A program made the position numbers and the translations under genes. A stretch of 64,000 bases of DNA from Mustelus asterias (Eukaryota), in contig NC_135808.1 in assembly GCF_964213995.1 (NCBI RefSeq), positions 91,760,001 through 91,824,000 on the forward strand, read 5' to 3'. A model generated the notes under the pieces. The model did not search any database, was not told where the DNA came from, and worked only from the letters and a program-made list of their open reading frames with translations. This document shows, piece after piece, positions 9,705-49,410 of this stretch (position 1 is its first letter; every line of letters begins with the position of its first letter).

Positions 9705-10270
9705 TTCATAGAATGGTTACAGCAAAAAGGAAACCATTCAGCCTGCCATGTTTGTGCTTGCTCTCTGAAAGCACAAGTCACCAAGTGCCAATCCCCCACT
9801 TCTCCCTGTAACCCTGCGCATTCTTCCTTTTCAGATAATAGTCCAATTCCCTGTTGAATGCTTCGATTGAACCTGCCTCCATCACACTCTCAGGCAATGC
9901 ACTTCCAGAACCCAACTATACACTGTGAAAAATATTTTCTTCATGTCTCCATTGCTCTTTAGCCAATTTAAATCTGAGTCCTCTGGTTATTGATTCTTCC
10001 ACCAATGTAGTATTAACATATAGCAGGAAGAGCAGGGTCCCAACATCAATGCATGGGGAAGTCCATGATAAACATTCCTCCAGTCCAAAAAACAACCGTT
10101 CGGCACTGCCCTCGGTGTCCTGTCACAAGGCCAATTTTGTATTTATGATGCAACTGTGACTTTTATTCCATAAGCTCTAACTTTGCTCACAAGCGAATTG
10201 TGTATAGCATTTTATCAAATGCCCTTTGGCAGTCCATGCACATCACGGCAACAGAATTACCCTCAAAAAC
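9705..10270 (-). mobile_element. CR1 fragments in intron 3 of the ISY1-like gene
   Basis: Reverse complement resembles the CR1 3' end and the RT region (KAFDK, GVPQG-like). Confidence 0.65.
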
Positions 10271-12543: not shown

Positions 12544-12601
12544 AGACAGAGTACACTGACAGAGTACACTGACAGAGTACACTGACAGAGTACACTGACA
12601 G
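12544..12601. repeat. 13-bp tandem repeat x4 in intron 1 of the ISY1-like gene
   Basis: (GACAGAGTACACT)4. Confidence 0.9.
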
Positions 12602-13710: not shown

Positions 13711-13843
13711 AGTCCTCCACATTCCCAGCATCCACCTCTCTGGTGCAGTCCTCCACATTCCCGACACCCTCCTCTCTCAGCAAGTCCTCCGCGTTCCCGG
13801 CATTCTCATCTTTCACTCAGTCCTCCGCCTTCCCGGCATCCTC
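13711..13843. repeat. 36-bp tandem repeat (~3.7 copies) immediately 5' of the ISY1-like start codon
   Basis: AGTCCTCC(A/G)C(A/G/C)TTCCC recurs at 13711, 13747, 13783, 13819. Confidence 0.85.
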
Positions 13844-14879: not shown

Positions 14880-15176
14880 CGACACTATCCTTGTGGATAT
14901 TGGTATATTTCCTGTACTGTTTCGTGCAGCATCATTCAGCATATCTTCGTGTCGCTTCAATTTTATTGATTACCCTTACTATATGAATATTCCATTCACA
15001 ACTCCCATACTCCAGGATTGGTCAAGCAAATGTTTGGTAAGATATAACTCTGATATTTTGTTGCAATACCAAAGATTCCTCCTCAGAAATCCCAAAATCA
15101 TGTTTGCTTTGGATGTTATCTCCTGAATGTGGAATCCCCATTGAAGATTGTCTTTTAAAATGAAACCCCAGGTATG
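14880..15176 (-). mobile_element. Old LINE RT fragment split by the young CR1 (continues at ~20227-20270)
   Basis: Joined flanks read DAKPYLGF...LQWGFHIQEITSKANMILGFLRRNL...LEYGS, typical of the post-RT region of CR1/L2-group LINEs. Confidence 0.7.
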
Positions 15177-16048
15177 TTTGGATTTAGTATCAGTTGTTTG
15201 GGTTTAATATCAGTTGTTTGGATTTAATATCAGTTGTTTGGATTTAGTATCTGTTGTTTGGGTTTAATATCAGTTGTTTGGGTTTAATCTCAGTTGTTTG
15301 GATTTAATCTCAGTTGTTTGGATTTAATATCAGTTGTTTGGATTTAGTATCAGTTGTTTGGATTTAATATCAGTTGTTTGGGTTTAATATCAGGTTTTTG
15401 GGTTTAATATCAGTTGTTTGGATTTAGTATCAGTTGTTTGGGTTTAATATCAGTTGTTTGGGTTTAATCTCAGTTGTTTGGGTTTAATCTCAGTTGTTTG
15501 GATTTAATATCAGTTGTTTGGATTTAGTATCAGTTGTTTGGGTTTAATATCAGTTGTTTGGGTTTAATCTCAGTTATTTGGATTTAGTATCAGTTGTTTG
15601 GGTTTAATCGCAGTTGTTTGGGTTTAATCTCAGTTGTTTGGATTTAATATCAGTTGTTTGGATTTAGTATCAGTTGTTTGGATTTAATATCAGTTGTTTG
15701 GATTTAGTATCAGTTGTTTGGGTTTAATCTCAGTTGTTTGGATTTAATATCAGTTGTTTGGATTTAGTATCAGTTGTTTGGATTTAATATCAGTTGTTTG
15801 GATTTAGTATCAGTTGTTTGGGTTTAATATCAGTTGTTTGGATTTAGTATCAGTTGTTTGGGTTTAATATCAGTTGTTTAGGTTTAATCTCAGTTGTTTT
15901 GGGTTTAATCTCAGTTGTTTGGGTTTAATATCAGTTGTTCTGGGTTTAATCTCAGTTGTTCTGGGTTTAATATCAGTTGTTTGGGTTTAATCTCAGTTGT
16001 TTAGGTTTAATCTCAGTTGTTTGGGTTTAATATCAGTTGTTAATATCA
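15177..16048 (+). repeat. 20-bp tandem array (~43 units) at the 5' end of the CR1
   Basis: GG(A/G)TTTA(A/G)T(A/C)TCAGTTGTTT repeated head-to-tail with no spacers. Confidence 0.95.
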
Positions 16049-16168
16049 GGGATTTGTTCCCAGGAGCAGGCTGAGGGTAAGAGAGTGGGTTTTCTGACTT
16101 TAATTAATTATTTATTTTTTTGTTTCCTTACACTCTTATTAACTTTTCACTGTCTTACTTGACATAAA

Positions 16169-17107
16169 GTGTCCAGTATGAGTGTGAAACCAGTGTGTTG
16201 TTCCCAGTGTAGGATGTGGGAGGTCCTGGAGGCATCTGGCCTCCCGGACATCCACATCTGTGAGGGGTGTGTCGAGCTGCGGTTCCTGAGGGACCGTGTT
16301 AGGGAGCTGGAACTGCAGCTCGAGGATCTTAGGCTGATGAGGGAGAATGAGGAGGTGATAGACAAGAGCTATCATCAGGTGGTCACACCAGGGCAACGGG
16401 AGGAGGCCAAGTGGGTGATGGCCAGGAAGGGTAAGGCTAGGGTGGTTGAGAGCACCCCAGTGGATTTGCCCCTGCACAACAAGTACTCCTGCTTGAGTAC
16501 TGCTGGGGGGGACAGCCCGCCTGGGGGAAGCAGCAGTGGCCGTGTCTCCGCAGTGGAGTCCAGCCCTGTAACTCAGAGGGCTAAGGAAAAGAGGAGGAAG
16601 GTGGTATTAATCGGGGACTCGATGGTGAAGGGGACAGACAGGCGTTTCTGCGGAGGTAGGCGGGATTCTCGCATGGTGGTCTGCCTCCCTGGGGCCGGGA
16701 TCCAGGATGTCGCTAGTCGCGTCCCGGAAATCCTGAGGTGGGAGGGAGAGGAGCCTGAGGTAGCGGTACATATTGGTACCGCTGATGTGGGTAGGAAGGG
16801 AGAAGGGGTCATGAAAAGGGAGTACAGGGAATTAGGGAGACAGCTGAGAAAGAGGAAAGCAAAGGTAGTAATCTCAGGATTACTGCCTGTGCCACGGGAA
16901 GGTGAGGGCAGGAATGGAGTGAGGTGGAAGATGAATGTGTGGCTGAGGGACTGGTGCAGGGGGCAGGGATTCAGGTTCCTGGACCATTGGGACCTCTTTA
17001 GGGGCAGGGGTGATCTGTATACAAAAAACGGGTGGAACTTGAATCACACGGGGACCAATATCCTGGCCGGTAGGTTGGCTAAAGTTACTGGGGAGAATTT
17101 AAACTAG
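16169..17107 (+). CDS. CR1 ORF1p (Cys zinc finger/leucine zipper + SGNH esterase-like domain)
   Basis: CxxC...CxxC then heptad LRDRVRELELQLEDL; VLIGDS, CLPGA, HIGT, VVISGLLPVPR motifs. The likely ATG is a few codons in (MSVK). Confidence 0.9.
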   Translation: MSSMSVKPVCCSQCRMWEVLEASGLPDIHICEGCVELRFLRDRVRELELQLEDLRLMRENEEVIDKSYHQVVTPGQREEAKWVMARKGKARVVESTPVDLPLHNKYSCLSTAGGDSPPGGSSSGRVSAVESSPVTQRAKEKRRKVVLIGDSMVKGTDRRFCGGRRDSRMVVCLPGAGIQDVASRVPEILRWEGEEPEVAVHIGTADVGRKGEGVMKREYRELGRQLRKRKAKVVISGLLPVPREGEGRNGVRWKMNVWLRDWCRGQGFRFLDHWDLFRGRGDLYTKNGWNLNHTGTNILAGRLAKVTGENLN

Positions 17108-17112
17108 ATAGG

Positions 17113-20100
17113 TTGGGGGGAGGGGAGCTAGAAGAGTTGACTAGGATCAAGGAACTAATTGATGGGGTGGAGGATGCAGGGGTAAGGGGAATTACAAAAT
17201 TAATGGTAGAGGAGAGGGTGCAAGTGAATGAAGGCGGTAATTTAGATAAGGGAGTAGAGGGAGAGGGTGTTCGCGACTCATCAAAGCGGGTCCAGATAAA
17301 AGCTGGAATAAGGACACTTTGCCTGAATGCACGAAGCATTCGGAACAAGGTATATGAGTTGATGGTGCAAATCAGCACGAGTGGGTACGATCTAGTGGCC
17401 ATTACAGAAACGTGGCTGAAAGGTGACCAGGACTGGGAGATGAATATCCAGGGGTATCAGGCGTTTAGGAAGAATAGACAGGAAGGAAAAGGTGGTGGGG
17501 TCGCGCTATTAATAAGAGATAATATCAGGGTAGTACTGAGGGATGACATAGGCTCTGAGGAACAAAACGTGGAATCATTATGGGTAGAGATGAGGAATAG
17601 TAGAGGGAGAAAGACACTAGTAGGTGTGGTATATAGGCCCCCAAATAATAATGTTGAGGTGGGGAGGGCTATAAACAAGCAGATAAGGGATGCGTGTAAA
17701 AACGGAACGGCAATAATCATGGGGGACTTCAACATGCACATTGACTGGCAGACTCAAGTCGGTAAGGGTGGAATGGAGGAAGAGTTCTTAGAATGCTGTC
17801 GGGATAGTTTCCTTGAACAGCATGTTACGGAACCGACGAGGGAACGAGCTATTTTGGATCTGGTATTGTGTAACGAGGTAGGTAGAATTAAGGATCTTAT
17901 TGTGAAGGACCCTCTTGGGTCTAGTGACCACAATATGGTCGAATTTCTGATTCAGATGGAAGAGGAGAAAGTTTGGTCCCAAACCAGTGTCCTCTGTTTG
18001 AACAGAGGGAAATATGATAGGATGAGGGATGAATTGGCTAAGGTAGACTGGGAGAGCAGGCTGGCAGGTAGGATAGCTGAGGAACAGTGGAGGATTTTTA
18101 AGGAGATCCTTTTCAGTTCTCAGCAAAAATATATTCCAGCAAAAAACAAGGATTGTAAGAAAAGGGAGAACCAGCCGTGGATAACGAAGGAAATAAAGGA
18201 GAGTATTAAAATAAAAACAGCTGCGTACAGAGTGGCCAAAAATAGTGGAGAAACAAGTGATTGGGAAAAATTTAAGAAACAACAAAGAGAGACTAAGAAA
18301 GCGATAAAGAAAGGAAGGATAGACTATGAAGCTAGGCTAGCAATTAATATAAAAAATGATAGTAAAAGTTTTTATAAATATATAAAAAGGAATAGAGTGG
18401 CTAGAGTGAATGTTGGACCCTTGGAGGACGAGAGGGGGGAGTTAATAGTGGGAAATGAGGATATGGCTGAGTCTTTAAATAAGTTTTTTGTGTCGGTCTT
18501 CACGGTGGAGGACACAAATAGTTTGCCAAATATTAACGATAGAGGGTTGGCAGCAGGAGAAATACTTAATACAATTAATGTAACCAGAGAGGCAGTGCTG
18601 GGTAGACTAATGGGACTGAAGGTGGACAAGTCCCCGGGTCCGGATGGAATGCATCCCAGGGTATTGAAAGAAATGTCAGAGGTAATAGTGGATGCGTTAG
18701 TGATTATTTATCAAAACTCGTTGCATTCTGGGGTAGTGCCGGTTGATTGGAAAACGGCTAATGTTACGCCGCTGTTTAAAAAAGGAAGGAGACAAAAGGC
18801 GGGTAACTATAGGCCGGTCAGCTTAACGTCTGTAGTAGGGAAAATGCTGGAATCCATTATTAAAGAGGAGATAGCAGGGCATCTGGATAGAAATGGTTCG
18901 ATCAATCAGACGCAGCATGGATTCATGAGGGGAAAGTCGTGCTTGACGAACATGTTGGATTTTTATGAAGATGTGACTAGGGCGGTTGATGGAGGAGAAC
19001 CGGTGGATGCGGTGTTTTTGGATTTCCAAAAGGCGTTTGATAAGGTGCCCCATAAAAGGCTACTGAAGAAGATTAGGGCACACGGAGTTGGGGGTAGTGT
19101 GTTAAAGTGGATTGGGGACTGGCTATCCGACAGGAAGCAAAGAGTCGGAATAAATGGGTGTTTTTCCGGTTGGAGGAAGGTAACTAGTGGCGTGCCGCAG
19201 GGATCGGTACTCGGGCCGCAACTATTTACCATTTATATAGATGATCTGGAGGAGGGGACGGAGTGTAGGGTAACGAAGTTTGCAGACGACACAAAGATAA
19301 GTGGAAAAGTGAATCGTGTGGAGGACGGAGAAGATCTGCAGAGAGATTTGGACAGGCTGAGTGAGTGGGCGAGGATATGGCAAATGGAGTATAACGTTGA
19401 GAAATGCGAGGTTATACACTTTGGAGGAAATAATAACAAATGGGATTACTATCTCAATGGAAACAAATTAAAACATGCTACCGTGCAAAGGGACCTGGGG
19501 GTCCTTGTGCATGAGACGCAAAAGCCCAGTCTGCAGGTACAACAGGTGATCAAGAAGGCAAATGGGATGTTGGCCTATATTGCGAAGGGGATAGAATATA
19601 AAAGCAGGGATGTCTTGATGCACCTGTACAGGGCATTGGTGAGGCCGCAGCTGGAATACTGTGTGCAGTATTGGTCCCCTTATATGAGGAAGGATATATT
19701 GGCATTGGAGGGAGTGCAGAGAAGGTTCACCAGGTTGATACCGGAGATGAGGGGTTTGGATTATGAGGAGAGGCTGAGGAGATTGGGTTTGTACTCGTTG
19801 GAGTTTAGAAGGATGAGGGGGGATCTTATGGAGACTTATAAGATAATGCGGGGGCTGGATAGGGTGGAGGCGGAGAGATTCTTTCCACTTAGTAAGGAAG
19901 TTAAAACTAGAGGACACAGCCTCAAAATAAAGGGGGGTCGGTTTAAGACAGAGTTGAGGAGGAACTTCTTCTCCCAGAGGGTGGTGAATCTCTGGAATTC
20001 TCTGCCCACTGAGGTGGTGGAGGCTACCTCGCTGAATATGTTTAAAGCGCGGATGGATGGATTCCTGATCGGTAAGGGAATTAAGGGTTATGGGGATCAG

Positions 20101-20118
20101 GCGGGTAAGTGGTACTGA
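17113..20118 (+). CDS. CR1 ORF2p (AP endonuclease + reverse transcriptase)
   Basis: CLNARS, AITETW, MGDFN, SDH (APE); KSPGPDG, NYRPVSLT, DFQKAFD, GVPQGSVLGP, KFADD (RT); TRGH...FFSQRVVNLWNSLP C-terminus. No stops over ~1000 codons. Confidence 0.95.
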   Translation: MGGGELEELTRIKELIDGVEDAGVRGITKLMVEERVQVNEGGNLDKGVEGEGVRDSSKRVQIKAGIRTLCLNARSIRNKVYELMVQISTSGYDLVAITETWLKGDQDWEMNIQGYQAFRKNRQEGKGGGVALLIRDNIRVVLRDDIGSEEQNVESLWVEMRNSRGRKTLVGVVYRPPNNNVEVGRAINKQIRDACKNGTAIIMGDFNMHIDWQTQVGKGGMEEEFLECCRDSFLEQHVTEPTRERAILDLVLCNEVGRIKDLIVKDPLGSSDHNMVEFLIQMEEEKVWSQTSVLCLNRGKYDRMRDELAKVDWESRLAGRIAEEQWRIFKEILFSSQQKYIPAKNKDCKKRENQPWITKEIKESIKIKTAAYRVAKNSGETSDWEKFKKQQRETKKAIKKGRIDYEARLAINIKNDSKSFYKYIKRNRVARVNVGPLEDERGELIVGNEDMAESLNKFFVSVFTVEDTNSLPNINDRGLAAGEILNTINVTREAVLGRLMGLKVDKSPGPDGMHPRVLKEMSEVIVDALVIIYQNSLHSGVVPVDWKTANVTPLFKKGRRQKAGNYRPVSLTSVVGKMLESIIKEEIAGHLDRNGSINQTQHGFMRGKSCLTNMLDFYEDVTRAVDGGEPVDAVFLDFQKAFDKVPHKRLLKKIRAHGVGGSVLKWIGDWLSDRKQRVGINGCFSGWRKVTSGVPQGSVLGPQLFTIYIDDLEEGTECRVTKFADDTKISGKVNRVEDGEDLQRDLDRLSEWARIWQMEYNVEKCEVIHFGGNNNKWDYYLNGNKLKHATVQRDLGVLVHETQKPSLQVQQVIKKANGMLAYIAKGIEYKSRDVLMHLYRALVRPQLEYCVQYWSPYMRKDILALEGVQRRFTRLIPEMRGLDYEERLRRLGLYSLEFRRMRGDLMETYKIMRGLDRVEAERFFPLSKEVKTRGHSLKIKGGRFKTELRRNFFSQRVVNLWNSLPTEVVEATSLNMFKARMDGFLIGKGIKGYGDQAGKWY

Positions 20119-20849
20119 TCCACGTCAGATCAGCCATGATCTTATTGAATGGCGGGGCAGGCTCGAAGGGCTAGATGGCCTACTCCTGCTCCTATTTCTT
20201 ATGTTCTTATGTTCTTATGTTCTTATGTATGGTTTTGCATCCACTATTGGAGAATTTGACTACACAACTTAAAGGAGATAGAATGTGGGGTTTAGGGAGA
20301 CTAGAGAACGGGGTTCTGGAAAGAGAGTAATATTCTGGAAAGCCAATTGGTGAAGGTTGATGCTGAAGTCAATCTTTACTCTGTCTTACATTTATTTACA
20401 GAGCAAACATTACAAGCAAATGCCTCCATGATGTGTCTCTATATGCTCAAGTGAAACCCCAATTATTACCGTCCATCTGCACATAATTAAACACAAATTT
20501 ATATACAAATAACAAGGTTATTGGATGGAGCAGAAGGAGACTGGGTTATTTGTTTGAGTCTTAACTGATGACATCTTTTTAGCATCAAAGGACAGAATAT
20601 CATGTGGGACAGATCAGTTGAATTCTTAAGTGCAATGTACAATAGGTTCACAGATGCTGTCAGACCCGCTGAATTTTTCCAGCATTTTGTGTTTTAGATT
20701 ACATTTCTACCATCCCCAGTTTTTTTACTGTATACAGTAGGATTTGGGGGTACAGTGATGATTTTCAGAAATTGCTAGTTGGTTGAATTGTCCATAATTA
20801 GACCAGTTCAAAGTGATCAGAAGCAGAAAATCTACAGCAGAGAAAAAAA

Positions 20850-21975
20850 CCATTCATTCAATCCATTGTGCCTGTGCCAGGCGAAAAAGGTTATCATGTC
20901 TAATTCCACATTCCAGTTCTTGATCCATAGTCCTATAGGTTACGGCAATTCATGTGCATATCTAATTTTCTAGTAATGCAATCAGGACTTTGCTTCTAGA
21001 AACCTTTCAGTGAGTTCCAGATTTCCATCACCTGGGTGAAAAATATCCTCAACTCCCCTCTAACTCTGCCAATTACTATAAACCTATTCCCCTTTGCGAC
21101 TGACCTCTCTGCTAAAAGAAATAGATCCTCCCTGCCACTCTAGTTGAGCCCTCATAATTTTATACACTCAGATAAGTTTTCCCTCAGTGTCCTTTGTTTC
21201 AAAGAAAACAACCTCAAGTTTTACTCATTGGAGATTTGCAAGGAACGTTACATTTTAACTATACTCGCTAGTACATTTCTCATCCATCCTGTAATTTGGT
21301 GACTACAACTGTGTCCAGTACTTCAGCATGTACCCTAACTAGTATTTTATACAGTTCTAGTATGATTAACCTCCCAGTCTTTATGCTTGATGCCTTGACT
21401 AATAAATGAAAATATCTCATAAGCTTTCTTGACCACCTGATCTCCCTGTCCAGCTACCTTCAGGAATCTGTAGAAAGACGCACTAAGATCCCAGTTTCCT
21501 CTGCACTTCTCAATATCCTGCCATTTATTGTGTATTCCCTTTCCGCCTTTGCACTCTCAAAATGCATTACCTCACACTTCTTCGATTGAATTTAATTAGT
21601 CAGTTTTCTGCCCACATGACCAGTTCGTTGCTTTCTTCTTGCAATCGACAGCTTTCTTTCAAGCACATAGCCATTGTTTGCATAATTTCCAAACCTCTTA
21701 ATTATGTCCCCTACATGTAAGTCCAAATCATTGATATATACCATCAAAAGCGTAGGAGCTACTACAGTTCTCTGAAGAACTCCATTGGAATCAATCTGCC
21801 AGTCACAACCCATCAACCAGTATCCTTGTTTCCTGCCGGTGAGTCTATTTTGGATCCAATTTTGACAGTTGAGCTTGGATATGGATTCTTAATTTTCTAA
21901 CCAGTCTGCTATATGGGACCTTGTCAAAAGCCTTGCAAAAATCCATGAAGACTTCACCAAATGTGCCACCCTCAA
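20850..21975 (-). mobile_element. Old CR1 ORF2 fragment
   Basis: Degenerate DFCKAFDKVP, VYINDLD and 3' end on the minus strand. Confidence 0.7.
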
Positions 21976-22715
21976 CACTGCAGCACAAGCCATTAGGCAA
22001 GGGATTCCACCAAATTCGCCAGTAAAGAGAACTGCTTTCATTTACAATAAAATATGTTCATGATCCCTTGTTGTAGTCATAGTCAAACATTCATCCAATA
22101 TGTTTAAATCTCTCATATCTTCTGTTAGAGAGGACAATCACAAACGATTATCATGTTAAAGGTTTAACAGGAAATTTCCATGGAAAAAATACACAAATAT
22201 ATTGAATTGCAAAAAATTACAAGTGCACCACCATTTTGTCCATTTATTTGTGCTTTTGCTACTTGATATTACTGAGACTATCCTTTGTGTTTAAAACTCT
22301 TTTCACTTGTGATACTGAACTACCTCAGTGCCAGTTTGTGAGGTTTCTGACTGGGGCTGTACTGATAGAGCCATTGATAAATGAAGTGGTATTCACCTCA
22401 GCAATGCCAACACTCCAGTGGACTTGCTCTAGTGCTACATCACTCGTGTATCCAATGTCTTCCTGGCCCAGACCACAATATCTCAATATCCTGCCATTTA
22501 TTGTGTATTCCCTTTCTGCCTTTGCTCTCGCAAAATGCATCATCTCACACTTCTTTGATTGAATTCAGTTTGTCACTTTTCTGCCCACATGACCAGTTCA
22601 TTGCTCTCTTCTTGCAATCCACAGCTTTCTACAATGTACTGTCACTGCCTTGAGAAGCAGTGACATTTGAACCTATTCCTTATAGCTCATTAGTGTTGGG
22701 GAATGGTTTGCACCA

Positions 22716-23166
22716 GATAAGACAATAAGACATAGGAGCAGAATTAGGCCACTCGGCCCATCGAGTCTGCTCCGCCATTCAATCATGGCTAATATTTTTC
22801 TCATCCCCATTCTCCTGCCTTTTCCCCATAACCCCTGATCCCCTTATTAATCAAGAACCTATCTATCTCTGTCTTAAAGACACTCAATGACCTGGCCTCC
22901 ACAGCCTTCTGCGGCAAAGAGTTCCACAGATTCACCACTCTCTGGCTAAAGAAATTCCTCTTCATCTCTGTTTTAAAGGATCGTCCCTTTAGCCTGAGGT
23001 TGTGCCCTCTGGTTCTAGTTTTTCCTACTAGTGGAAACATCCTCTCCACGTCCATCCTATCCAGGCCTTGCAGTATCCTGTAAGTTTCAATAAGATCCCC
23101 CCTCATCCTTCTAAACTCCAATGAGTACAGACCCAGAGTCCTCAACCGTTCCTCATACGACAAGCA
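22716..23166 (-). mobile_element. Young 5'-truncated CR1
   Basis: ORF 22801-23163 SYEERLRTLGLYSLEFRRMRGDL...; 3' UTR and short tail. Confidence 0.9.
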
Positions 23167-23239
23167 CTATAGATCAGGCACTATAGTTAAAAAATGAGTT
23201 GTGAAAACCTGGGCAAAGCTGTCCTTCAGGACATTTATG

Positions 23240-30354: not shown

Positions 30355-31355
30355 ATCCCTTTTCTGAATGGAAAGCTGTGACTAGCGATGTTCCACAGGG
30401 ATCAGTTCTGGGACCTTTGTTGTTCATAGTATGTATAAATGATTTGGAGGAAAATGTAGCTGGTCTGATTAGTAAGTTTGCAGATGACATAAAAACTGGT
30501 GGAGTTGCAGATAGTAAAGAGTCAACAAGATATATACTGGTTGGAGAAATGGCAGATGGACTTTGATCCGGACAAGTGTGAGAAAATGCATTTTGGAAGG
30601 TCCAATGCATGTAAGAATTATACCGTAAATGGTAGAATCCTTAGGAGTATTGACAGGAAGAGAGATCTGGGTGTACATGTCCACCGATCACTGAAAATGG
30701 CAACACAGGTGGATAAGGTAGTCAAGAAGGCATATGGCATGCTTCCTTCATTGGTCGGGGCATTGAGTATAAAAATTGGCAGGTCAATTGCAGCTGTACA
30801 GGCCTCATTTAGAATATTGTGTACAATTTTAGTCGCCACACTACCAGAAGGATGTGAATGCTTTGGAGAGGGTACAGAAGAGGTTTACCATGATGTTGCC
30901 TGGTCTGGAGGGTATTAGCTAAGAGGAGAGGTTGGATAAATTCAATTTGTTCTCACTGGAACAATGGAGGTTGAGGGGTGACCTGATTGAAGTTTACAAG
31001 ATTATGAGTGGCATGGAAAGAGTGGATAGTCAGATGCTCTTTCCTAGGGTAGAAAAGTCAAGTACTAGGGGAGATAGGTTTAAGCCGCTTGGGGAAAAGT
31101 TTAGAGGAGATGTGCAGGCAAGTTTTTTACACAGAGGGTGGTAAATGTCTGGAACGCATTGCCCGGAGAGGTGGTGGGAGCAGGTACGATAGCAGAATTC
31201 GAGAGGCAACTAGACGAATACATGACTAGGATGGGAATAGAAAGATACAGACTCCGTAAGTGCATACAGTTTTAGTTTAGGCAGGCATCATGATTGGCGC
31301 AGGGTTGGAGGGCCGACGGGCCTCCTGTTCTGTGCTGTACTTTTCTTTGTTCTAT
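30355..31355 (+). mobile_element. 5'-truncated, frameshifted CR1
   Basis: VPQGSVLGP, ISKFADD, RLRGDLIEVYKIM and CR1 3' UTR. Confidence 0.88.
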
Positions 31356-45695: not shown

Positions 45696-48333
45696 TGAGT
45701 CCCAGTCCGAGCCCAAGCAAGCTTCGCCCACCTGTAAACATGACCAACTATCAGACCCTTCTATATTCAGGCAGAAGAACAAAGAGGGTTGGCAGCGGGT
45801 GCCAGGACTTTTGTATTTTGTTGTTGGCACATTCAGCTATCTGTCTTCCACATTTACCCACCCCTCTGTAACTTTCTTTTGAGAAATAAAATTGCATCAA
45901 AAAAACTCTGAGAATTCATCTCTAACAGATCTACATGTCAGTAACGTTTGCAATTTTAGAAATTATACCAGGAAATTGCAACAACAGCCACCTGTTTTTC
46001 CAGCATAACATTGGTGTTCGACCACTGAGTTTTCTGTTGTGATCTGCCATGTCCCATTTCTCCAGAAATGTGCTGGACAACATAATGGCTCCGTGGCATT
46101 TAGCTGCAGGAACTCAAGTGTGAATTTCAGATATAAATAGGCACGTTTAGTTGTATCAAATATTAAATGCCCAAATCAGCAGCCCTTAGGAACTTTTCCG
46201 TTTTTACTTTTGTGTATAGTTGCCACCTTTGATTGGAGATATTCCTGGAGGTTTGCTCGCATGACATTTCACCAAGTGACACTTAATCATTTGACATCAA
46301 TCCCATGACATCTGGTCACATGAGCTGGATCAAATGGCACTTGCAAATGTTACTGTGCTTATCGTACAAAGGTTGCGTCCCTGTATTTGAACATCTTTGC
46401 TCAGCTGCACACCAGAAGCTATTGTACAGAAAGCTCCAAGAACTAGGAGAAAGAATGTTATGTTTACAGTATTCTTTAATTTTTTAATTATTTCATGGGA
46501 AGAATGCAAGGCTGGCTAGACCAGCATTTATTGCCTGTTTGCCCTTCAGAAGGTGGTGGTGAGCCACCTTCCTGAACCACTGCAGACCATGTGGTGTAGG
46601 TACACCCACAGTGCTGTTAGGGAGAGAGTTCCAGGAATTTGACCCATAATGTATAAAATGTAATAATGTAGGAAATGCAGCAGATGATTTGCACTCATTG
46701 ATCTCCCACAAACAGCAATTAAATAAATGATAAAAGTATGTGCTTTAGATATTGGTTGAGAGTAAGTGTTGGCTAGGACACTGGGGAACTGCCCAGCTCT
46801 GAATCATGCTCTTTTATGTTATTCTATGGGATCTGTTATGTTTATCTGAGAGAGCAGGGAGGAGCTTAGCTTCATATCTCATCCAGAAAATTCCATTTGC
46901 TTTGCTTTTTATCTGCTGTACCTGCATGCCAGTTTTCTGCGACTCATGCACGAGGACACCCAGATCCCACTTCACCGAAGCACCCCAAAGCCTCTTTCCA
47001 TTGAGATAATAAGTTGCCTTTCCATTTTCCGACCAAAATGGATAACCTCACATTTTTCCACGTTAAACTCCATCTGCCACATTCTGATCGCTGCCTCAAT
47101 ACCTCCTCCCTAGCCAATGGCCAAAAAACCCCCAGGCTGATTGCCACCCTGATAACCAGCACCCCCTCCCATCCGATTGCAGTCCTGACAAATCCCCAAT
47201 GCAGAGTACCTCCTGCCTCCCCGTCATTTTCCCGCTCCATCGTGGCCCTGCCCCATCATGGTCCCACCCCTTCCAATAGGTATCTCCCCTTGGCACTGCC
47301 CAGTGCCTGGTAGGCACCATGAGGGTGCCCGTCTTCCAGTGCCAAGGCACCCAATAGCCAGTGCCAGGATGCCAGGCTGGCAGTGCCAAGCTGGTACTTC
47401 AAATTAGCAATTACTTACCAATCAACAAGTGAACATGTAACTGCCCTGATCCATATAATTGAGTAAGCCATACCGCTTTTACCTGCTAAACCACTGAAAA
47501 GTTGCTTTTTATATTCAGTGTTATGTATGGTAATTCAGTTAAATTAACTACTGTAATTTAGTTTGTGTTAGGCACCATATTTCAGTTTGAATAAGGTGCT
47601 GTAAAACATTGATGCAGTCTGTTTCCTCATTACCTGATGAAACCATCAATACCAAGAGGGACTCAGGTTCTGATAATTGATAACATGACTGATAATTAGT
47701 ACAGCAGCAGTGAAATGTTACTACTCAGTTTGTCAATGCTATAGCTTCCTGAATGCTCACATTGCTTCAAGATGCGGTGAGGGGTTATAAAACCGAATGA
47801 CCTCAAACACCTGGGCTCATATTTATAAAGAATTTATTGCACACTTTAATACCGAAAGCTTTTGTATGTTTTCACATGTGTTCATTCTTTTAAAGTTGAA
47901 AATGTGCAGCAAATTACTTGTAGATTTTGTTCCAACTGCTCAAAGTGTCTTCAAGTACACATAATTTACATGAGCCTAACTCCACAAACTTAGTGGCATG
48001 AAACTGCCAACTCCAGACTGAGTTCAAAAAAGAAATCAGCCCAAAGCCACTTGCCAAGGAATCACCGGTATTCTGCTTACACATACCAAACTGAACACAA
48101 CTTTCACACTTACAACATCTTTTTTTTCAATTTACTGACTCCTGTTAGGTAATATAGATAGGTTAATTTATATTACCTTACCTTCATGTGTGAGTGCAGA
48201 CAGCATTGGTAAGATATTCAGCCTGTATTGTCCTCACCCAGAGTCCACGCTGTAGCAGAAGCCATTAGATAGATTTCAGGGAGGGAACTCTGGAAGACTT
48301 TCCCCTAACTGGCCAGAGAATGCTAAAATCTAT

Positions 48334-49410
48334 TAGAACATAGAACATTACAGCGCAGTACAGGCCCTTCGGCCCTCGATGTTGCACCAACCAGTGGAAC
48401 CAATCTAAAGTCCCTCTAATCTACACTATTCCAATATCATCCATATGTTTATCCAATAACCATTTGAATGCTCTTAATGTTGACGAGTCCACTCCTGCTG
48501 CAGGCAGGGCATTCCACGCCCTTACTACTCTCTGAGTAAAGAACCTACCTCTAACATCTGTCCTATATCTCTCACCCCTCAATTTAAAGCTATGTCCCCT
48601 CGTGCTAGCCATCACCATCCAAGGAAAAAGGCTCTCACTATCCACCCTATATAATCCTCTGATCATCTTGTATGCCTCTATTAAGTCACCTCTTAACCTT
48701 CTTCTCGCTAACGAAAACAACCTCAAGCCCCTCAGCCTTTCCTCATATGATTTTCCCACCATACCAGGCAACATCCTGGTAAATCTCCTCTGCACCCTTT
48801 CCAACACTTCCACATCTTTCCTATAATACGGCGACCAGAACTGTACGCAATAATCCAAATGCGGCCGCACCAGAGTTTTGTACAGTTGCAGCATGACCTC
48901 CTGGCTCTGAAACTCAATCCCTCTACCAATAAAAGCTAACACACCGTACGCCTTCTTAACAGCCCTATCAACCTGGGTGCCAACTTTCAGGGATCTATGC
49001 ACATGGACACCCTGATCCCTCTGTTCGTCCACACTACCAAGTATCTTACCATTAGCCCAGTACTCTGTATTCCTGTTACTCTTTCCAAAGTGAATCACCT
49101 CACACTTTTCCACATTAAACTCCATTTGCCACATCTCAGCCCAGCTCTGCAGCATATCTATGTCCCTCTGTAACCGGCCACTTCCCTCTGCACTGTCTAC
49201 AACTCCACCGACTTTAGTGTCATCCGCAAATTTACTAATCCATCCTTCTACGCCCTCATCCAGGTCATTAATAAAAATGACAAACAGCAGTGGCCCCAAA
49301 ACAGATCCTTGCGGTACACCACTAGTAACTGAACTCCAGGATGAATATTTCCCATCAACCACCACCCTCTGTTTTCTTCCAGCTAGCCAATTCCTGATCC
49401 AAACCACTAA
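48334..49410 (-). mobile_element. Young 5'-truncated CR1 with open RT C-terminal frame
   Basis: ORF 48421-49407 (GVPQGSVLGP, KFADD, TRGH); (TTCTATG)n tail at ~48334. Confidence 0.92.

Follow-up and report, generated by a model that had tools for sequence, protein, structure and literature searches.

How the second protein of a long interspersed nuclear element (LINE) is synthesized is an open question, to which the usual answer is reinitiation. The 64,000-nucleotide stretch of Mustelus asterias contig NC_135808.1 analysed here (the window) holds an intact LINE with two open reading frames (ORFs), at ~15175–20228, whose ORF junction poses this question. A preliminary description of the window had recognized an intact CR1 element and proposed that ORF1 and ORF2 are joined in a Gag-Pol-like fusion. 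Having followed the junction through other CR1 lineages of this genome and beyond, we consider it very probable that it is a programmed −1 frameshift signal that would yield an ORF1–ORF2 fusion, as the conservation of a slippery heptamer and of its phase suggests. This reading draws on sequence, phase, conservation, the lack of AUG codons, the absence of predicted structure and two recombinations that kept the frame.

The slippery heptamer at the end of ORF1

The junction and its surroundings comprise the following features.

16178..17107, + strand: ORF1, 309 amino acids, SGNH/GDSL esterase type (ORF list; Pfam PF13472)
17083..20118, + strand: ORF2 frame, −1 relative to ORF1, intact, with linker, APE endonuclease and reverse transcriptase (PF03372, PF14529, PF00078)
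17098..17104, + strand: slippery heptamer U_UUA_AAC, in phase with ORF1 (sequence; conservation)
17105..17107, + strand: ORF1 stop codon TAG, adjoining the heptamer (sequence)
17104..17310, + strand: linker from heptamer to endonuclease (stop codons: none in frame −1, 11 in frame 0 and 6 in frame +1)
17115..17125, + strand: G-tract (G6-A-G4), conserved and unstructured, lying 10 nt past the heptamer and a candidate 3′ stimulator (lineage alignment; no fold)
17203..17205, + strand: first in-frame ORF2 ATG, specific to the lineage; two ATGs upstream of it, at 17162 and 17174, are out of frame
17311..17931, + strand: APE endonuclease domain (start motif from ~17311; Pfam match 17371–17931)
18784..19431, + strand: reverse transcriptase domain (PF00078)

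ORF1 ends AAT TTA AAC TAG (17096–17107), and T_TTA_AAC is phased as X_XXY_YYZ directly before the stop, as the preliminary description had read it. Its placing of ORF2 in the −1 frame, open from 17083 and with a first ATG at ~17203, was likewise borne out. This frame runs open for 1011 codons across the endonuclease and reverse transcriptase domains, and the predicted ORF1–ORF2 fusion is 1,313 (~1,310) amino acids long. Under tandem slippage, the established model of −1 frameshifting, the product would carry Asn-Leu-Asn (frame 0) followed by Leu-Asp-Arg (frame −1). The junction peptides suggested earlier (...GENLKLDR or ...GENFKLDR) are therefore probably wrong; on this model we rejected Lys- or Phe-Lys-containing peptides as the main product, with a minor Lys form being possible.

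In the 3.68-Gb genome of this shark, all 40 scored matches, window copy included, are 100% identical over 16900–17400; the window family is very young. Because identical copies prove nothing about function, we searched for other lineages with divergent ORF1 proteins, a choice of query that exerts no selection for the heptamer. This yielded 240 loci, not de-duplicated and unevenly distributed over lineages, of which 239 were analysed. The exact heptamer is present in 221 of the 239 junctions and one-letter variants in 10, five of which are U_UUA_AAU and keep the slippery form; the remaining 8 have no heptamer within reach, several of them being rearranged. At the 231 anchored junctions, the heptamer is followed by TAG (115), TAA (102), TGA (3), TAT with the stop one codon later (7) or another codon (4). 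The codon before Leu encodes any of nine residues (Gly, Ala, Ser, Asn, Asp, Thr, Cys, Arg or Val) and ends in T in 231/231. Judged by these counts, the junction heptamer is not a chance occurrence.

Across 13 lineages, each represented by one real copy, all seven heptamer positions are invariant. Third codon positions are invariant in 3/3 cases within the heptamer, compared with 4/43 in the 47 codons upstream, and the C-terminal esterase domains of the lineages are as low as 42–45% identical. Elsewhere in ORF1, TTA accounts for 20 of 130 Leu codons and AAC for 26 of 55 Asn codons. In lineage J (L174–L176, L182 and L184–L186), a Tyr codon separates the heptamer from the stop, so that the stop has shifted one codon downstream and the heptamer is kept. 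The preliminary description had named a loss of heptamer or −1 phase among CR1 families as evidence that would count against it; both are kept over 15 lineages of this genome.

Outside this genome, we counted ORF1 homologues whose match reached the C-terminal part, against a background of 3–4% Asn ends. Asn is the last residue of 23 of the 26 close homologues. Among the 104 distant cluster representatives it is the last residue of 71, with 55 Leu-Asn, 10 Gly-Asn and 6 other ends; named members with Leu-Asn ends include a lizard and two turtles. A Gly-Asn end was predicted to hide G_GGA_AAC, and this was borne out at the sole locus with DNA (L142, from a metagenome), where TAG and a G-tract come after G_GGA_AAC and no stop interrupts the −1 frame in the 38 nt that remain of the contig. 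The invariant third positions and this swap to another heptamer indicate that the heptamer is conserved beyond what the protein would need. According to the part of the 2016 recoding review consulted here (the first 300,000 of its 449,034 characters; PMC5009743), U_UUA_AAC and G_GGA_AAC are among the four most shifty heptamers for mammalian ribosomes. Several distant ORF1s (P0068, P0072, P0107, P0135 and others) have Phe-Phe-x and Lys-Asn ends that fit other slippery heptamers. Searches of viral contigs with three alignments returned 0, 1 and 0 loci, the single one (L111) not being usable; metagenomes returned one locus, and prokaryote genomes one weak 19-residue match that was disregarded.

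Published consensus sequences point the same way. In the consensus table of PMC13343379, 17 of 20 matches to the heptamer plus TAG or TAA sit, by eye, between esterase-like and endonuclease-like sequence, in a search that covered approximately the first 400 letters per entry, has no denominator and is too noisy for a phase check. We read the labels of these entries as alligator, crocodile, bullfrog, coelacanth, bowfin, chimaera, sharks, rays and one teleost; in an entry from a lizard, the heptamer is followed by TGA. In these junctions, the heptamer and stop are mostly followed by a G-run. The suggestion in the preliminary description that the heptamer ends ORF1 in other vertebrate CR1s agrees with the presence of heptamer and stop in the table's entries for many vertebrate groups. 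The supplements of PMC4120745 and two of the three supplementary files of PMC4316615 contain no junction sequence.

Phase of ORF2 and two chimeric families

A modal heptamer–endonuclease distance could be assigned to 15 lineages, all of which place the endonuclease in the −1 frame. The modal linkers (119, 122 (twice), 131, 140 (four times), 167 (twice), 170, 182, 206, 257 and 275 nt) span 10 different lengths from 119 to 275 nt, all equal to 2 modulo 3. In modal copies, each linker has 0–0.5 stops in the −1 frame, compared with 1.2–11 in the other two frames. Copy by copy, the endonuclease is in the −1 frame in 172 of the 217 copies in which it was placed. A sixteenth, old lineage (lineage D, 10 copies) has no modal linker length. 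The two ORFs overlap by 22 nt in most lineages, and in lineages I, J and K only 3 nt of open ORF2 frame precede the heptamer. A 22-nt overlap is also said to feature in a 1997 turtle CR1 paper, which may have raised frameshifting.

Could ORF2 instead be translated from its own AUG (17203), whether ribosomes reinitiate after scanning or use a separate or spliced RNA, with the heptamer as a by-product of a conserved Leu-Asn protein end? An in-frame ATG is present in 30/30 copies of the window family, a C-terminal Leu-Asn could be a protein constraint, and CTAG could act as a splice acceptor at the window junction. We nevertheless consider this route very improbable, since in 11 of the 15 modal lineages the stretch up to the first endonuclease motif is free of in-frame AUGs (the remaining four carry one, at +47, +68, +98 and +107). 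The window's +98 ATG is the inherited +47 codon of lineage I, which is a Lys codon in the sister lineages J and K; dependence of ORF2 on this ATG, which the preliminary description had named as a finding that would speak against frameshifting, is on the sequence side not indicated, the codon not being conserved. Furthermore, two out-of-frame ATGs (17162 and 17174) precede it, the linker upstream of it is kept open, and a protein constraint is unable to fix synonymous positions. As for splicing, the AG is absent where the stop is TAA (102/231), and no pyrimidine tract lies ahead of it. A GT–AG joint across the junction was not seen in four public runs, which consist of contigs and cannot show absence.

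Recombination has provided a natural experiment on the point of entry into ORF2. One further feature of the window is relevant here.

17153..17175, + strand: recombination breakpoint (17153–17154) and remnant of the ORF2 donor junction (last three heptamer letters, stop and G-tract), from identity to L241 and L146

By these identities, the young and highly amplified window family is a chimera of two CR1 lineages ~50% apart in protein, joined just past the cassette of heptamer, stop and G-tract. Positions 16128–17154 share 93.8% DNA identity with L241, and positions 17153–18561 share 89.7% with L146. At the protein level, the ORF1 end is 91–93% identical to lineage N (L235 and L241), whose endonuclease is only ~50% identical, while the endonuclease shares 91% identity with that of lineage I (L146), a lineage in which ORF1 identity is 45%. 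The crossover lies within the heptamer that belonged to the ORF2 donor, 50 nt downstream of the one that was kept. From the retained heptamer through the stop to the G-tract, all 28 nt match the 5′ parent, while 7 of the following 29 nt do not. A decayed internal donor cassette, also considered, was dropped because the breakpoint runs through it. A second chimera (L234, L236, L237 and L238) combines the same 5′ parent with a J-type ORF2, joined at +179/+180. In all four copies the −1 frame is uninterrupted for 257 nt (three of them lack an AUG), and L236 is open for 983 codons. As a side observation, the first residues of the parent's endonuclease are retained in this chimera as part of the linker. 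The two chimeras are independent, and both retained the heptamer, the G-tract and the −1 frame. Read from their sequences, they show that ORF2 translation would enter at or before the ORF1 stop and not at an AUG of the ORF2 module.

The chimeras alone do not separate slippage from restart at the stop. In termination–reinitiation, the main rival reading, an AUG-independent or near-cognate restart beside the ORF1 stop would make a separate ORF2 protein, with the G-tract or heptamer holding the 40S. With such a restart, a fixed −1 phase, an open linker and the chimeras all find an explanation, and it has precedents in the UAAUG overlap of SART1 (PMC3708506, in its main text) and in mammalian L1, whose ORF2 is thought to start independently of AUG (PMC5009743). 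A UAAUG overlap also occurs in lineage D, and a UGGGA motif lies at +17 in many lineages. Even so, reinitiation appears unlikely, as it leaves unexplained the retention of X_XXY_YYZ at all seven letters before the stop, the switch to G_GGA_AAC and the keeping of the heptamer in lineage J, where the stop has moved. The letters after the stop are variable, so there is no conserved restart codon. The UAAUG overlap is absent from the window junction and from all 15 modal lineages, UGGGA copies upstream of the stop vary in position and belong to Trp codons, the window has none downstream, and folding of the window junction and of the lineages did not reveal a SART1-type RNA structure downstream of the overlap.

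The downstream G-tract and the proposed mechanism

Downstream of the stop, G occupies +11, +12, +13, +18 and +19 in 13/13 lineages, and the G fraction of the tract is 0.72, compared with 0.36 further downstream. In most lineages the first G of the run is at +11; in I, J and K it is at +9, which gives two codon registers in which the tract is read. The preliminary description had placed a G-rich tract ~7 nt downstream, at a typical stimulator spacing. A GG does begin at 17111 (+7), but the conserved run begins at 17115 (+11) and is linear, without a fold. Stimulator spacings given in the recoding review are 5–9 nt for folded elements and 11–15 nt for linear, factor-dependent ones (PMC5009743). 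We infer that the G-tract acts as a stimulator of frameshifting; a Gly-rich peptide constraint or a plain sense-strand G-bias could still account for it.

Contigs of relatives in three public runs cease to match the window at 17124, where the G-tract ends. Much longer G-runs occur in some copies (L164, L175, L179, L182 and L183), which suggests that the tract is unstable or slippage-prone in copying or assembly.

No stable hairpin was predicted in the region downstream of the window junction (z = −0.24 to +0.67 in three windows), nor was a stem-loop in nine lineages (z between −0.8 and +2.0), and the alignment gave no consensus structure; pseudoknots were not modelled explicitly. An upstream hairpin at ~17067–17090 was rejected, being no better than shuffles and not kept across lineages.

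An unstructured G-tract could be a protein-binding site, and conservation at the nucleotide level does not by itself specify a function. The heptamer and G-tract might serve another purpose as a signal in RNA or DNA, such as binding of ORF1p or ORF2p, packaging or RNA processing, with no change of frame. We regard this as the least probable of the alternatives, given that the motif is always in slippery phase with ORF1, that its sole known replacement is another slippery heptamer, and that AUG-less ORF2s would remain unexplained. Moreover, in the window chimera the donor heptamer was cut through without harm, while the heptamer at the ORF1 end was kept.

On the frameshift reading, ribosomes would translate ORF1 and the majority would terminate at UAG, releasing the free 309-residue esterase protein. 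A minority would shift back one base on U_UUA_AAC and read through the length-variable, charged linker into the endonuclease and reverse transcriptase, giving a fusion as in retroviral Gag-Pol. The pause would probably come from the adjacent stop codon together with the linear G-tract 8–10 nt downstream, which might act through a bound protein, rRNA contact or a G-quadruplex-like state rather than a hairpin or pseudoknot.

Several observations weigh against this reading. The lineages share ancestry, and the counts are therefore not independent. Of the copies with a placed endonuclease, 45 of 217 are out of the −1 frame, which we take as indels or decay after insertion. In the window family, an in-frame ATG sits 36 codons upstream of the endonuclease, and lineage D has the stop–start overlap described above. 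A restart fixed at the stop codon would predict the open −1 linker and the frame-keeping chimeras just as well. A canonical folded stimulator 5–9 nt downstream was not found, and a long-range partner of the G-tract, sought in 13 elements, had no consistent site (a recurring match near −655 was rejected as it lies in Pro-Leu codons), so that the efficiency of frameshifting may be low. Among the distant homologues, 33 of 104 have no terminal Asn; some of these have Phe-Phe or Leu-Asn 1–2 residues upstream, while others have no such sign. Outside this genome, the DNA phase check consists of L142 alone, whose contig ends before the endonuclease. Finally, ribosomal slippage, the frequency at which it would occur, the resulting fusion and any stimulation by the G-tract are deduced from sequence.

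Tentatively, and with less confidence than we place in the junction itself, we propose that esterase-type CR1 elements of jawed vertebrates and some invertebrates may make their polymerase only as a −1 fusion, using a novel stimulator composed of the stop and a linear G-tract ~10 nt downstream, recognized by a host RNA-binding protein or folded as a G-quadruplex, and that the cassette may also be a point at which ORF1 and ORF2 are swapped in frame. Natural use of G-quadruplexes for frameshift stimulation is described as not known in the part of the recoding review covered (PMC5009743). If frameshifting is confirmed, the CR1 polymerase would be an esterase–endonuclease–reverse transcriptase fusion, ORF2 annotations starting from an internal Met would be wrong, engineered CR1 vectors would need the junction, and vertebrate genomes would hold a very large natural collection of frameshift cassettes with a non-standard, unstructured stimulator.

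Known systems and element context

Frameshifting in LINEs has a precedent in Dictyostelium TRE5-A and TRE3-A, which need a −1 frameshift according to a figure legend (PMC5911963). These APE-type non-LTR (long terminal repeat) retrotransposons are the closest known system to what is proposed for CR1. They belong to another clade and host; CR1, by comparison, combines an esterase ORF1 and a G-tract with a canonical heptamer that is kept across vertebrates. The heptamers of the CR1 group (U_UUA_AAC and G_GGA_AAC) are those of coronavirus ORF1a/1b and retroviral or LTR-element Gag-Pol, and the logic would be the same, with much structural protein and little polymerase fusion. Unlike these systems, CR1 is a non-LTR element without a protease, has no stem-loop 5–9 nt downstream and places the stop directly after the heptamer.

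An unstructured motif at a fixed, longer spacing, as in the CR1 G-tract, is known from arteriviruses (nsp1beta/PCBP), cardioviruses and Semliki Forest virus. Viruses with linear stimulators have 11–14-nt spacers and trans-acting factors, with rRNA pairing and an unstructured stimulator in Semliki Forest virus (PMC5009743). In contrast, the CR1 motif is G-rich, starts at +9 to +11 and is a candidate stimulator with no factor known. The accepted routes to a LINE ORF2 from a two-gene RNA are UAAUG coupling in SART1, whose overlap is likewise a −1 arrangement, and the AUG-independent start of human L1, at least in the portions of the sources covered; the recoding review treats mammalian LINE ORF2 as a case of unusual initiation (PMC5009743). 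The CR1 group differs in its fixed slippery heptamer, UAAUG being present in one old lineage only.

No report of CR1 frameshifting was found in the literature searched, which did not reach the 1997 chicken and turtle CR1 papers or Repbase notes. The word 'frameshift' is absent from the main texts of PMC13343379, PMC4120745, PMC3708506 and PMC3905857, and is used in other senses in the parts of PMC4255032 and PMC5006619 covered. Neither the junction signal nor chimerism at the junction is described in the parts of PMC13343379, PMC4120745, PMC3708506 and PMC3905857 covered, and CR1 is not mentioned in the stated part of the recoding review (PMC5009743). CR1-group elements are the dominant retrotransposons of most vertebrates according to the text of PMC13343379. 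The signal, which comes with a non-standard linear downstream motif and in-frame module swapping at the junction, apparently has not been described for the largest vertebrate LINE group.

The element runs in the order 20-bp tandem array, ORF1, ORF2 and terminal 8-bp microsatellite. Its ends are as follows.

15175..16041, + strand: 5′ end array of ~43 copies of a 20-bp unit, in the 5′ untranslated region (UTR) (tandem-repeat analysis)
20196..20228, + strand: 3′ terminal 8-bp microsatellite, four copies (×4.1), end of the element (tandem-repeat analysis)

The terminal microsatellite is what we take to be a CR1-type end. ORF1 matches PF13472 (E = 4.7e-10, 40.7 bits, cut-off 32.9), and ORF2 carries an APE endonuclease followed by a reverse transcriptase; an esterase ORF1 with this ORF2 order is the canonical vertebrate CR1 arrangement in the texts of PMC13343379 and PMC3905857. 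Together with the short tandem repeats at the 3′ end and dispersed copies on 17 large contigs, this assigns the element to CR1, and the junction and its flanks resemble, by eye, published CR1-labelled consensus sequences. Named ORF1 homologues belong to rays and sharks.

In 9 of the 12 window-family copies checked, the 20-bp array abuts the same 5′ UTR, and it may be the promoter region of the element. Within that UTR, at ~16077–16176, a GTAAG donor-like site, a long pyrimidine tract and a CAG right before the ORF1 ATG resemble a 100-nt intron; three of four other lineages have a donor-like site and a T-rich tract in the 5′ UTR without a clear acceptor at the same place. The last esterase block of the window ORF1 reads G-W-N-L in place of its relatives' D-G-L-H-L. 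Presumably this includes the catalytic His of SGNH block V, which thus appears changed in the ORF1 of an active family. Upstream of the element, short tandem arrays with 13-bp and 36-bp units lie at 12545–12601 and 13711–13841. The window also contains older, truncated LINE ORF2 fragments at 10035–10202, 21322–21979, 22807–23193, 30360–31248, 46886–47085 and 48427–49401, which are 27–89% identical in protein pieces.

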